A stretch of DNA of 64,000 nt, from contig JAVIYP010000003.1 in NCBI GenBank assembly GCA_031323845.1, positions 11,007-75,006 of the forward strand, given 5' to 3'. Positions within the stretch are counted from its first letter, which is position 1, and each line of letters starts with the position of its first letter. The stretch is from Bacteroidales bacterium. Its GTDB lineage: Bacteria; Bacteroidota; Bacteroidia; Bacteroidales; UBA7960. The position numbers and the translations under genes were made by a program. Under the pieces are notes generated by a model. It had not been told where the DNA came from and searched no databases. It saw only the letters and a list, made by a program, of their open reading frames with translations. Shown in pieces: positions 2,459 to 40,780 of the stretch.

Positions 2459-2555
2459 CAGCTTTGGTTACTGTCCGCTTCACCGCAAGCCCTCCTGCTG
2501 TTATCTCACCAGGCAGGCTTCCCCGCGAAGATAAGCAAAAACCTTCATTCATAAA

Positions 2556-2667
2556 GCTAAAAGCCAAAGGCAAAAATGGAGAAAATGAAAAGTGAAAAGT
2601 GAAAAATACCTGTAACATGACAAATCTTCACATTTGCACATCTGCACATTTTCACATCTGCACATCT
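2556..2667 (-). repeat. Mosaic short-tandem-repeat element, inverted copy (GCAGATGT-type x6, TTTTCAC-type x4, CTTTGG-type blocks)
   Basis: The reverse complement reads AGATGTGCAGATGTGAAAATGTGCAGATGTGCAAATGTGAAGATTTG-TCATGTT..-TTTTCACTTTTCACTTTTCATTTTCTCC-..GCCTTTGGCTTTTAGC. This is collinear with 22543-22656, including the identical terminal GCCTTTGGCTTTTAGC. Confidence 0.85.
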
Positions 2668-2730
2668 ATTTTTTTCATGCATCTGTGTGTAATCTCGCAT
2701 GAAAAAAATTTCATGTAAATTTGGAGAAAG
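2664..2730 (+). promoter_or_regulatory. Conserved ~65-nt promoter module with a -7 box TAAATTTG (2716-2723) upstream of the EEP gene
   Basis: TAAATTTG matches the Bacteroidota TAnnTTTG -7 consensus and lies 22 nt before the ATG at 2746. The module is roughly four-fifths identical by eye to 37474-37540. It contains a perfect 12-bp inverted repeat, TTTTTTTCATGC (2669-2680) / GCATGAAAAAAA (2697-2708). Confidence 0.55.
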
Positions 2731-2745
2731 AAGTTTATAAGGCAG

Positions 2746-10314: not shown

Positions 10315-10427
10315 TAATTAAAAATTCTGCTGTGGCTCTCCCGGAAACTGTCGGCCAATATGCCTGTTTTCATTCATCCGGGATGACCGGGTTTAACAAT
10401 AAGTTACAGGGCCCGCAAACGGGACTG

Positions 10428-21836: not shown

Positions 21837-22493
21837 TTAAAACTCACCCTGCCTGTTAAAAACGTATTGCAAGATATTTGCTCCCATTTGCAGCGCCTTC
21901 AGCCGCACCTCTTCTGGATTTCCGTGAACGGCCTGATCTTCCCACCCGTTGCCCAGGTCTATTTCATAAGTATAATACAGTACAAGGCGTCCGTCGTAAA
22001 AAATTCCGAAACCCTGCGGAGGCTTTCCGTCATGCTCATGAATTTTTGGCGGGCCATCAGGAAACGAAAAGGACTGATGATATATGGGGTGGGAGAAGGG
22101 CAACTCAATAAGTTCATGGTCCGGGAAAATTTTTTTCAATTCTCTGCGGAAGTAGGGATCAAGGCCATAATTGTCGTCAACATGCAGAAAACCGCCACCT
22201 GTAAGGTAATTTCGGATGTTCTGCGCCTCCTGCGCGGAAAAAACCACATTGCCATGCCCTGTCATGTAAACAAAAGGGTAATTGAACAGCTGGGAGCTCC
22301 CTGCCTCTACGGTGGCGATGTGCTGACTTATCGTGGTGCCAATGTGTTCGTTGGCAAAACGCACAAGGTTGGGCAGGGCCGTCGGATTGGAATACCAGTC
22401 GCCACCACCGCGATACTTAAGCGTGGCTATCTGGTAGTGCTGCGCCTGAATGCCCATTGGCAGAAAAAAGAGTAGGATCAGGATAATTTTCAT
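21837..22493 (-). CDS. DUF4159 domain protein (secreted)
   Basis: It has a signal peptide, MKIILILLFFLPMGIQAQ, followed by ATLKYRGGGDWYSNPTALPNL, which is typical of DUF4159. Confidence 0.6.
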   Translation of the reverse strand: MKIILILLFFLPMGIQAQHYQIATLKYRGGGDWYSNPTALPNLVRFANEHIGTTISQHIATVEAGSSQLFNYPFVYMTGHGNVVFSAQEAQNIRNYLTGGGFLHVDDNYGLDPYFRRELKKIFPDHELIELPFSHPIYHQSFSFPDGPPKIHEHDGKPPQGFGIFYDGRLVLYYTYEIDLGNGWEDQAVHGNPEEVRLKALQMGANILQYVFNRQGEF

Positions 22494-22519
22494 GAGTTAA
22501 TAATAACTTAGGTACTTTA

Positions 22520-22890
22520 TTGTCTGTGTTATGATTGAATTTGCAGATGTGCAAATGTGCAGATGTGCAAATGTGCAGATATGCCATGTTTGCAGAAATT
22601 TTTCACTTTTCATTTTTCATTTTTCACTTTATTAGCTTTTGGCCTTTGGCTTTTAGCAAGAAGATCTGAAACGAGCTTCCGCCTTCGAGCTATCTTGTTT
22701 CCTTCGGGCTCCTAATCCTTCAAAAAGAAAAAACCAACAAATAAACGATTAAACGATTAAACGATTCAACAATAGTTTTCTGACTTCTGACCTCTGGCCT
22801 TCGACTTCAGACTTCCTGGCAGATTTCTCACTACGTTCGAAATAAACCTCTTCCCGGGAGATCATGATCTACGAAATGCTCATTTCATGA
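22520..22890 (+). repeat. Full-length mosaic intergenic element made of five different short tandem-repeat blocks
   Basis: There are five repeat blocks. GCAGATGT-type x5 lies at 22543-22585, with an 8-nt period. TTTTCAC/T x4 lies at 22599-22630 and CTTTTGG/CCTTTGG/CTTTTAG at 22636-22656, both with a 7-nt period. AAACGATT x3 lies at 22743-22766 (8 nt). TTCTGAC-type x5 lies at 22778-22816 (7 nt). The element is flanked by promoter-module-like sequence at both ends. Confidence 0.9.
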
Positions 22891-29467: not shown

Positions 29468-29532
29468 GAAGTCGGAGGCCGGAAAATTATTGTTGAATCG
29501 TTTATTTGTTGAATCGTTTGATCGTTGGTTGG
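29468..29532 (-). repeat. Mosaic element fragment (TTCTGAC-type and AAACGATT-type blocks, inverted)
   Basis: GGAAGTCGGAGGCCGGAAAATTATTGTTGAATCGTTTATTTGTTGAATCGTTTGATCGTTGGTTGG is collinear with the reverse complement of 22735-22816 but has fewer repeat units. Confidence 0.8.
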
Positions 29533-37473: not shown

Positions 37474-37540
37474 CTCTATGTTTTTCATTTGTCTGTGTGT
37501 GCTTTCGAATGAATAAATTTCATGTACATTTGCAGGGAAA
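37474..37540 (+). promoter_or_regulatory. Conserved ~65-nt promoter module with a -7 box TACATTTG (37525-37532) upstream of fabD
   Basis: CTCTATGTTTTTCATTTGTCTGTGTGTGCTTTCGAATGAATAAATTTCATGTACATTTGCAGGGAAA aligns without gaps over the first ~44 nt, and with a 1-nt gap thereafter, to 2664-2730. The -7 box lies 37 nt before the ATG at 37570. Confidence 0.55.
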
Positions 37541-37569: not shown

Positions 37570-38445
37570 ATGAAAGCATATGTATTTCCCGGTCAGGGCG
37601 CGCAGTTTGTCGGTATGGGTAAAAACCTTTATGAAGACAATGCCGGGGCAAAAGAGATGTTTGAGAAGGCCAATGAAATCCTGGGTTTCCGGATCACCGA
37701 CCTGATGTTTGGTGGCACTGACGAGGATTTGCGGCAAACCAACGTTACCCAGCCAGCCATTTTCCTTCATTCGGTTATTCTGGCTCACACCCTTGGGGCT
37801 GATTTTCAGCCGGATATGGTTGCAGGCCACAGTCTGGGAGAGTTTTCTGCCCTGGTGGCTGCAAAGGCTTTATCGTTTGAAGATGGCCTGGTGCTTGTGT
37901 CAAAAAGGGCAGGAGCGATGCAGAAAGCCTGCGAAGTGAAGCCCTCTACCATGGCAGCCATCATCGGACTGGAAGATAAGGTGGTGGAGCAGGTTTGTGC
38001 CGGTATCTTTGATGTGGTTGTTCCTGCGAATTATAACAGTCCGGGCCAGTTGGTAATATCCGGCACCATACAGGGTGTGGACGTTGCCTGCGAAAAGTTA
38101 AAGGAAGCTGGTGCCAAACGCGCTCTTCCGCTGAAGGTGGGAGGGGCCTTTCATTCACCTCTCATGGAACCCGCCCGGCTGGAACTTGCCAAAGCCATCA
38201 ACGAAACCGCATTTAACGTACCCGTTTGTCCGGTATACCAGAATGTGGATGCTCAACCTTATACAGACCCTGAAAAGATCAAGGAAAACCTCATCGCTCA
38301 GCTCACAAATCCCGTCCGCTGGACACAAATCTCTGAAAATATGATCCGTGACGGGGCGAAGGTGTTTGTTGAAGTGGGCCCGGGTAAGGTGTTGCAGGGT
38401 CTGGTCAAAAAGGTAAACCACGAGGTTGACGCTTACAGCGCTTAG
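37570..38445 (+). CDS. fabD: Malonyl-CoA:ACP transacylase
   Basis: It has the active-site motif GHSLGEFSA, the N-terminus FPGQGAQFVGMG and a length of 291 aa. Confidence 0.95.
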   Translation: MKAYVFPGQGAQFVGMGKNLYEDNAGAKEMFEKANEILGFRITDLMFGGTDEDLRQTNVTQPAIFLHSVILAHTLGADFQPDMVAGHSLGEFSALVAAKALSFEDGLVLVSKRAGAMQKACEVKPSTMAAIIGLEDKVVEQVCAGIFDVVVPANYNSPGQLVISGTIQGVDVACEKLKEAGAKRALPLKVGGAFHSPLMEPARLELAKAINETAFNVPVCPVYQNVDAQPYTDPEKIKENLIAQLTNPVRWTQISENMIRDGAKVFVEVGPGKVLQGLVKKVNHEVDAYSA

Positions 38446-38517
38446 CAGATGTGCAGATGCGCAGATGTGCAAATGTGAAGATGTGCAGGTGTGAAGATGT
38501 GAAGCTGTAAGGATGCT
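38445..38517 (+). repeat. GCAGATGT-type 8-nt tandem array, 9 units
   Basis: The units are GCAGATGT GCAGATGC GCAGATGT GCAAATGT GAAGATGT GCAGGTGT GAAGATGT GAAGCTGT AAGGATGC. The first G is the last base of the fabD TAG stop. Confidence 0.9.
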
Positions 38518-38536
38518 GAAATAAAACACAGAGCGG

Positions 38537-40725: not shown

Positions 40726-40780
40726 CCTTAAACTTTAAACCTCAAACCTTCAACATCTAACTTCTAACCTCTAACTTCTA
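40726..40780. repeat. G-free 7-nt tandem array (CCTTAAA/CTTCTAA type, 8 units), a variant of the TTCTGAC block
   Basis: The units are CCTTAAA CTTTAAA CCTCAAA CCTTCAA CATCTAA CTTCTAA CCTCTAA CTTCTA. The TTCTAAC units differ by one base from TTCTGAC at 22778-22816. The array overlaps the last five codons and the stop of galE. Confidence 0.85.

Follow-up and report, generated by a model that had tools for sequence, protein, structure and literature searches.

Insertion sequences (ISs) of the IS110/IS1111 families that work with a bridge RNA or seekRNA, such as IS621 and ISEc11 (PMC11208160, PMC11187229), encode a recombinase with DEDD and Transposase_20 domains, lack terminal inverted repeats, show the same short core at both junctions and insert into one specific target sequence, for example REP or attC. 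Members of the IS1111 subgroup also have, 3′ of the gene, a long non-coding region whose boxes covary with the element ends, and 11–13 bp subterminal inverted repeats at distances of 7 bp (left) and 3 bp (right) from the tips (PMC11187229). ISPpu9 is accompanied by free-standing ssr9 small RNA modules without a transposase (bioRxiv 10.1101/2025.01.17.633520), which may be compared with the mini elements described below. The BrickBuilt MITE of Porphyromonas gingivalis is a multi-copy intergenic Bacteroidales element made up of a 'leader', a variable tandem array and a 'tail'; it has a single array of 23 nt units and small inverted-repeat ends, and its 19 copies lie 49–591 nt from genes (PMC4596501). 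Long simple sequence repeats with units of 5–11 nt were described by Mrazek et al. 2007, as cited in PMC4679880, and the latter study reported TAACTGA heptamer repeats in Beggiatoaceae, Cyanobacteria and Bacteroidetes. These are tandem 7–8 nt units in intergenic gaps, oriented to start codons, with mixed unit types in one gap and with relatives that have shorter gaps without arrays; no carrier element was found there.

The DNA analysed here (the window, 64,000 nt) comes from a short-read metagenome assembly of a Bacteroidales bacterium (2.9 Mb, 121 contigs, 48% G+C). A mosaic of 7–8 nt tandem repeats upstream of lolD (copy A) is probably an internal fragment, lacking both ends, of the dominant repeat family of this genome, whose members would be transposase-less (MITE-like) derivatives of Bacteroidota IS110-family ISs. 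Full-length relatives in other Bacteroidota share with the IS110/IS1111 elements the recombinase, the lack of terminal inverted repeats, the common core at both junctions and the single target and, as in IS1111, the long downstream non-coding region with covarying boxes. They differ in that the target is a start codon plus a lysine codon (ATGAAA) rather than REP or attC, and in that 11–13 bp subterminal repeats were not seen. The copies in the present genome differ further: they carry neither transposase nor guide region, their interior is a microsatellite mosaic, and their mobility is presumed. Compared with BrickBuilt, the family has up to seven arrays of 7–8 nt units in a fixed order, no inverted ends, about 90 copies, and a left end that sits on the start codon. 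Unlike the TAACTGA repeats, from which the units differ (TAACTGA itself was not seen), its arrays are carried by an element with unique ends. Two further repeat types are similar in architecture: the STRR heptamers of heterocystous cyanobacteria, which comprise several families of short tandem repeats outside genes, and the BOX elements of pneumococcus, with a modular A-B(n)-C build and a variable number of middle units. Both are unrelated in sequence and host, and neither is known to be linked to a start-codon target or to IS110.

The mosaic between lolD and the EEP gene

Six families of array units were distinguished: A (GCAGATGT), B (TTTTCAC), C (CTTTTGG), D (TAAACGAT), E (TTCTGAC) and F (CGAGCTT). 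Copy A (window 2553–2667, minus strand, about 115 nt) is collinear with 22538–22656, part of a second mosaic termed copy B (Table 1). Such a pair had been proposed in the initial annotation, and it is real. Local alignment gave 99 of 119 identical positions (83%) and a score of 135, compared with 19.8 ± 3.5 for 2000 dinucleotide shuffles (z = 32.7) and 28 for the wrong (reverse) orientation, a similarity far above low-complexity chance. The native order scored highest among all 24 block permutations, and the mean column identity in a MAFFT alignment with 22530–22680 was 82%. In a 17-mer search, block A found 14 matches in the window where 0.27 were expected. Further details of the initial description also held up: the spacer contains CATGTT, the terminal 16 nt are identical in both copies, and the six and four units counted there correspond to 5.5 GCAGATGT-type and 3.7 TTTTCAC units by TRF, within the fuzziness of partial units. 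Unit numbers do differ between the two, copy B having one additional B unit and one additional C unit. With period 8 (5.5 copies) and period 7 (3.7 copies) at 2581–2667, copy A belongs to the class of long simple sequence repeats with 5–11 nt units. Read on the minus strand, it runs out in ...GCCTTTGGCTTTTAGC after the TTTTCAC units.

Copies A and B are not a special pair. Both fall in a subfamily of at least six copies that lack the inverted D array and have the CATGTT spacer in common, and the nearest relative of copy A is C96:99591–99703, which sits within a canonical element and matches at 102 of 112 positions (91%) with equal unit counts, whereas copy B reaches only the 83% given above. 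The spacer of copy A is nearly the same at C96:99596, on C97, on C113 and on the minus strand of C96, and has a shorter form in copy B. In local alignments against C96, C97, C113 and copy B, homology to every relative breaks off sharply at 2553/2556 and at 2665–2667, and copy A has neither of the unique end modules of the family (L and R, described below).

Table 1. Repeat features and neighbouring motifs of the window
Feature	Position	Strand	Remarks
Box TTTTTGCTTATCTTCG proximal to lolD, with −7-like TAtcTTcG	2526–2541	−	Between array and lolD (1802–2455)
Core-like motif ATGAATGAA	2544–2552	−	Directly outside C end of copy A
Copy A, block C: TTTTTGCCTTTGGCTTTTAGCTTT	2553–2578	−	Alignments to C96, C97, C113 and copy B end at 2553–2556
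Copy A, block B: 3.7 units TTTTCAC/TTTTCAT	2579–2605	−	TRF (2581–2605), pattern search
Copy A, unique spacer ...TTTGTCATGTTACAGGTA, with CATGTT	2606–2623	−	Mark of the subfamily; inverted TAAACGAT array lacking
Copy A, block A: ~5.5 units GCAGATGT / GCAAATGT / GAAAATGT	2624–2667	−	TRF period 8, 5.5 copies
Core-like motif ATGAAAAAAAT	2668–2678	−	Directly outside A end of copy A; within left arm of inverted repeat
Putative EEP promoter module (ancestral)	2669–2745	+	12 bp inverted repeat and −7 box TAAATTTG (2716–2723)
Copy B, complete but decayed mini element	22494–22888	+	Fills whole gap from rsmE to secreted-protein gene
Copy B, start: shortened L module, then A array	A 22538–22584	+	
Copy B, middle: B, C, CGAGCTT-like stretch	B 22600–22630; C to 22656	+	
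Copy B: TAAACGAT x3.6, TTCTGAC x5, then unique tttctcactacgttcgaaataaac	22742–22770; 22778–22815	+	
Copy B, degenerate R module ending TTTCAT (...CATTTCAT)	22856–22888	+	
Short TAAACGAT / TTCCGAC junction fragment	29468–29532	−	Same family
Solitary A-type array	38445–38520	+	Starts on last base of fabD stop codon

Could the lolD copy be a mis-join or a collapsed repeat of the assembly? Of the 242 contig ends, 64 lie within 300 nt of an array, so that copy numbers in this genome are lower bounds and unit counts may be imprecise, and contig C34 has a Nextera adapter near its end. Against this, copy A is only 115 nt long, lies inside an 84.6 kb contig, between unique flanks whose synteny is shared by 13 relatives; an artefact is exceedingly unlikely. 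The Nextera/Tn5 adapter of C34 (CTGTCTCTTATACACATCT, about 10330–10350; L024:~735–755) lies inside the contig just past a full-length element, and suggests that the end of this contig is chimeric or contaminated by adapter. Contigs of the same species, on which polymorphism in unit number could be judged, were sought in two metagenome scans, with 0 matches.

The lolD and EEP genes are divergent neighbours in all 13 relatives, and the copy A array is absent from 13 of 13 gaps. What is conserved lies on either side of it. On the lolD side, CGAAGATAA(A/G)CAAAA or a near variant is found in most of these gaps, 26–60 nt from the lolD start. On the other side, a TAnnTTTG box precedes the EEP gene in nearly all 13, mostly as catgTAnnTTTG; in the window, its counterpart TAAATTTG lies 22 nt ahead of the EEP ATG (2746). 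A −7 promoter consensus for Bacteroidetes has been published, and the likeness of the boxes to it, together with their conservation, points to two promoters. The module that had been noted before the divergent EEP gene holds up, and relatives conserve it.

Copy A thus appears to be a lineage-specific insert between two older divergent promoter regions, upstream of both. A role in the lolD leader is unlikely, because the array lies upstream of the conserved lolD box and is absent in the 13 relatives; it is most likely only a spacer of about 115 bp, and not a lolD control element.

A promoter-like module (about 60 nt; TTTTTCATGCrTCTGTGTGT..CGCATGAAAAAAATTTCATGTAnnTTTG) is found again in front of unrelated genes, often directly after an R module (window 2669–2745 and 37474–37540; C32:~257, C54 and C12 beside R modules). 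Its EEP copy is ancestral, since G002 and G004, two of the relatives, have it too.

ATGAA motifs occur within 12 nt of both edges of copy A on the same strand (naive chance 5e-4, a post hoc estimate). The one at the A end overlaps the left arm (2669–2680) of a 12 bp inverted repeat whose other arm is at 2697–2708, and relative G002 has GCATGAAC at the position of ATGAAAAAAAT without any array, so that this ATGAA is ancestral. The reverse complement of block B (GTGAAAA/ATGAAAA) resembles the core of the family. The bracketing by ATGAA hints that copy A may have entered by a core-directed event.

Order, ends and target of the repeat family

Across the assembly, TRF reported 354 period-7 and 307 period-8 rows, and 426 of 502 classified arrays are intergenic. 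The commonest multi-block order is A+ D− [E−] B+ C+ F+ [D+ E+], whole or partial. B lies downstream of A on the same strand at 39 of 40 loci, so block order at other copies is not random; D lies downstream of A on the opposite strand at 59 of 69, and most copies have an inverted TAAACGAT array between A and B. Arrays hold from 2 to 17 units, and unique spacers are common to separate copies. The initial suggestion of a composite element copied as a whole agrees with the fixed order and strand and with the shared unique spacers, but the A, B and C arrays are not the whole composite: they are the middle of a larger element with unique ends. Changes of unit number by slippage, also suggested there, are likely, since copies differ by whole units, as slippage predicts.

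If the arrays were plain simple-sequence filler, born in place by replication slippage from favoured seeds, then separate loci would resemble each other because they use the same favoured units. The wide range of unit numbers is in keeping with this, as is the occurrence of the same unit types, in very different amounts, in 14 of the 18 species of the genus; the rsmE gap of two relatives holds quite different arrays, and both long simple sequence repeats (5–11 nt units) and mixed heptamer arrays are known from Bacteroidetes gaps (PMC4679880). Such an origin is nevertheless very unlikely, as non-repetitive spacers and junctions are common to the copies, block order and strand are fixed, copy A equals its C96 relative in unit counts at 91% identity, and the family has sharp edges and unique ends.

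These edges are seen in BLAST depth along long copies, which climbs from 1 to above 50 over some 15 nt and is 56–110 along full copies. The left jump lies directly after CAT and the right one after ...ATAATCATCCCCCTGTGTGTCAAAATCTTCGACATGGGCGTTTCAT. The left module L (about 62 nt; CAT/nTGTTTATATTT...CTGTGTTTTGTGTTTATGTCTAAGATGCTGAAC, the slash marking the junction) was found 89 times by strict matching, and the right module R (46 nt, ending TTTCAT) 61 times. An R module follows within 1.2 kb downstream of 28 L modules, on the same strand in 28 of 28, delimiting elements of 160–655 nt. An A array comes next after L in 59 of the 89; A arrays number 113 in all, and many arrays lie outside L...R elements, a point against the derivation proposed below. 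Junctions read (T)TTCAT/L...R ending GTTTCAT/, with the same short core on both sides, and neither L nor R is an inverted copy of the other. Both modules recur in other species of the genus, where they enclose different units (TAGAAGT, CTAACCTC) or non-repeat sequence. The R module occurs in three forms (examples at C5, C12, C31:10886 and C93:26339): a short one, one with a 23 nt hairpin insert (TCCCGAATGGTCGGGA), and one with GGCTTCGCCGGGCTGGCAAGTGCCCGGT before the final TCAT.

In 63 of 89 cases the L module abuts a CAT, which in 38 of them is the start of an ORF with 70 aa or more. ATGAAA is the start of 31 of the 38 ORFs, compared with 17.5% of all genes (p = 1e-17). Judged by their N-termini, the genes behind L are functionally unrelated (dehydrogenases, a methyltransferase, regulators and many secreted proteins).

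Copy B shows this arrangement in the window. It begins directly after the CAT (22491–22493) of an ATGAAA-start secreted-protein gene (21837–22493) and ends 3 nt from the stop codon of an rsmE-type gene. In most syntenic relatives examined, the rsmE gap is 27–130 nt long and lacks copy B, and in two relatives (G006, locus L062; G007, locus L071) it is filled by a unit of about 16 nt (GCATTGCTTTGAGAAT), then GAGGTTT, then TTTTGTC. These arrays are quite different from copy B, which suggests that the gap was colonised or remodelled independently there.

Two other groups of arrays were noted. About ten GCAGATGT arrays in the genome start on, or 1–4 nt from, an upstream stop codon (TGAtgtgcagatgtg, TAGcagatgtg), as at window 38443–38520 and, for example, C109:4501, C32:10519, C54:23693 and C86:46555; they have no L module and are oriented opposite to the family rule. 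At window 40726–40780, in the 3′ end region of a minus-strand gene, there is a mosaic of 7 nt units (CCTCAAA, CTTCTAA, AACCTCT) that resemble mini-element interiors in other species of the genus.

By crude ORF-based gene calls, 58 of 77 arrays have their A end towards a gene start (40 versus 14 in tandem gaps), and convergent gaps are avoided (5 of 77). Copy A had been described as lying in sense orientation upstream of lolD; in the family, the gene that conforms to the rule is the one on the A side, here EEP and not lolD. The bias is what might be expected of regulatory arrays, i.e., binding sites for a protein or the ribosome, or promoter or UP elements, in which case copy A would tune lolD and/or the EEP gene. 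The reverse strand of the A array contains TTTG and cACATTTG, resembling −33 and −7 boxes, and the R/L junction of some species reads TTTG-N20-TAnnTTTG; a BrickBuilt element has promoter activity (PMC4596501), and the TAACTGA repeats have been proposed as translational signals (PMC4679880). Regulation is still an unlikely explanation. The orientation bias follows from insertion of the L end at start codons, the host genes are unrelated in function, and array content varies between species. Copy A is absent from 13 relatives that keep both promoter boxes; the junction promoter is missing in closed genome G139, and a scan of 2400–2800 for terminators and sigma-70 promoters, which does not cover Bacteroidetes promoters, found neither. 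A promoter formed at the R/L junction of a circular intermediate was rejected as a general feature: only some species have it, G139 lacks it, and it faces away from the transposase.

Full-length IS110-type relatives

A 21-mer of R has more than 118 exact matches across Bacteroidota orders, in Algoriphagus, Cyclobacterium, Labilibaculum, Carboxylicivirga, Salegentibacter, Chitinophagaceae and Bacteroidales genomes; tandem L-mid-R units of about 97 nt each occur in Labilibaculum. The reverse complement of R forms the first 45 nt of an IS of 1.53–1.55 kb in Algoriphagus boritolerans, Algoriphagus sp. MSM8 and a Chitinophagaceae contig (full homologues in other Bacteroidota are 1.5–1.7 kb), and its product matches the Pfam domains DEDD_Tnp_IS110 (1.9e-28) and Transposase_20 (6e-17). 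The right end of the IS reads ...AATTATAAACAG/ATGAAA and lies on the start codon of the host gene. R aligns with the left ends of these ISs over all 46 nt, and L has CAT-nTGTTTATAwTT in common with their right ends, only about 15 nt. Since both ends match those of IS110-family ISs, the mosaics are best read as the interiors of transposase-less mini IS110 elements.

G139, of the same order, carries six copies, and the five full ones all read flank/ATGAAAC...ACGT/ATGAAA followed by a signal-peptide ORF, with left flanks unrelated to each other. Homologous ISs in four further genomes of the order (G093, G110, G111, G215) also abut ATGAAA; the copies of G223 and G224 are uninformative. The ISs form an IS110-family clade of Bacteroidota whose copies lie on ATGAAA starts mostly of signal-peptide or lipoprotein genes (L108:1654–3187, L126:4011–5545, L116:85–1637, and L209–L214 of G139), and the left end opens with a mini-ORF (e.g. 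MKYP-stop). Neither a start-codon-targeting IS110 clade nor IS110-derived mini elements in Bacteroidetes were found in the literature searched. IS900 may likewise insert close to a start codon, between it and the ribosome-binding site, but plays no part in the argument here.

A non-coding region of about 200 nt at the 3′ side of the IS gene contains two ATGAAA boxes. The nucleotide that follows box 1 is identical to base 7 of the left end in 8 of 8 ISs, and the 2 nt before box 2 equal the last 2 nt of the right end in 7 of 8. Between the boxes, a helix of 7–11 bp with compensatory changes (CGCTAAG, ACAGATAAG, AGTTTAAG, AGCCAAG) was recognised in 7 of 8 ISs by direct inspection; RNAalifold on the eight IS tails missed it, the 3′ arm being misaligned. 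Covarying boxes are what the bridge-RNA/seekRNA model of IS110/IS1111 would predict (PMC11208160, PMC11187229), and these ISs are probably RNA-guided. In the Algoriphagus, Chitinophagaceae and G139 ISs, inspection of the ends showed no subterminal inverted repeats of the IS1111 type.

It might be argued that L and R are REP-like repeats of the host and a mere landing site for IS110-type elements. Homing to REP sequences is known for members of the IS110 family (PMC11208160), and the Algoriphagus IS adjoins small L-R units. However, the G139 and Chitinophagaceae ISs start with R-type sequence despite unique left flanks, the guide-like boxes covary with the ends of the IS itself, and the right end of the IS lacks the 'mid' segment of the small units, and little credence is given to a mere landing site.

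The properties expected of mini IS110 elements are largely found. Homology to IS ends is present at the family level (R 46 nt, L about 15 nt), not in copy A; both junctions carry the same core without terminal inverted repeats or a variable target duplication; and the site is sequence-specific (31/38 ATGAAA in this genome, 5/5 in G139). A cognate recombinase and guide RNA in the same cell were not found in the present, fragmented assembly. Its 121 contigs gave no match to the IS110-type transposase domains (PF01548, PF02371), and any current mobiliser in this genome is hypothetical. A protein search of 25 genomes of the genus also found no homologue; these consist of 80–430 contigs each, and such assemblies often lose IS copies. 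Close recombinase homologues (47–69% aa identity) are present in 8 of 201 genomes of the order.

Other classes of element were rejected. A classical MITE of the BrickBuilt type, mobilised by a DDE transposase, does not agree with ends that are not inverted copies or with a flanking repeat that is always the same core. REP/BIME elements, which combine palindromic REP sequences some 35 nt long with a gene for a Y1 (RAYT) transposase, do not fit either: units and modules fold no better than shuffles (z = −1.3 to +0.2), and the same is true of the minimal unit of about 97 nt, whichever strand or phase is taken. Mobilisation by a Y1/RAYT enzyme was ruled out, the sole Y1 match in the assembly being a truncated 79 aa IS200-like remnant that stops before the HUH motif (L023:1492–1731; C22:54652–54891). 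Rfam gave no match in the window at gathering score, and none on the elements at five loci with E ≤ 1.

Proposed origin and meaning of the mosaics

The mini elements would have arisen from such ISs as follows. L would correspond to the right end of a full IS, and R to the left one. Full ISs lie exactly on ATGAAA start codons, which they rebuild from their own core copy, and supply an A/C-rich leader; the guide is presumably an RNA from the 3′ non-coding region, by analogy with IS621 and ISEc11. Mini elements, probably mobilised in trans by the same RNA-guided route, would then have the layout CAT (host gene start)/L (about 62 nt)–arrays–R (46 nt, ending GTTTCAT)/, with a full array order of GCAGATGT, inverted TAAACGAT, TTTTCAC, CTTTTGG, CGAGCTT, TAAACGAT and TTCTGAC. 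Their interior would be dispensable and presumably neutral, and would have turned into microsatellites with 7–8 nt units; whenever an element is copied its arrays would go with it, and their unit numbers would change afterwards, most probably by slippage. In this lineage only, copy A would have entered the gap between lolD and the EEP gene. The array-filled interior appears to be the new part; IS110 derivatives, MITEs with internal satellites and long simple sequence repeats are kinds already known.

A more active role of the arrays is also conceivable. The B unit on the host-gene strand is an ATGAAAA/GTGAAAA core and ATGAA brackets copy A, so IS110-type core-to-core recombination could act on the arrays, adding, removing, inverting or exporting blocks in whole-unit steps, while L would serve as a translation leader for about 40 unrelated genes. 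This is unlikely; if true, it would amount to a genome-wide system for rewiring 5′ regions and tuning their length.

The derivation from mini IS110 elements offers an origin for the gene gaps of some Bacteroidota that are packed with ordered 7–8 base repeats and were previously filed as unexplained simple-sequence filler. Carriage by such elements would explain why the arrays are oriented to gene starts, keep a fixed order, are present in particular lineages and coincide with assembly breaks. It also cautions annotators that neither the mosaics nor the shared 62 nt 'leader' should be read as regulons or operators. The start-codon IS110 clade may be of interest to the bridge-RNA recombinase field, as its natural target would be a defined 6 nt core at the start of coding sequences.
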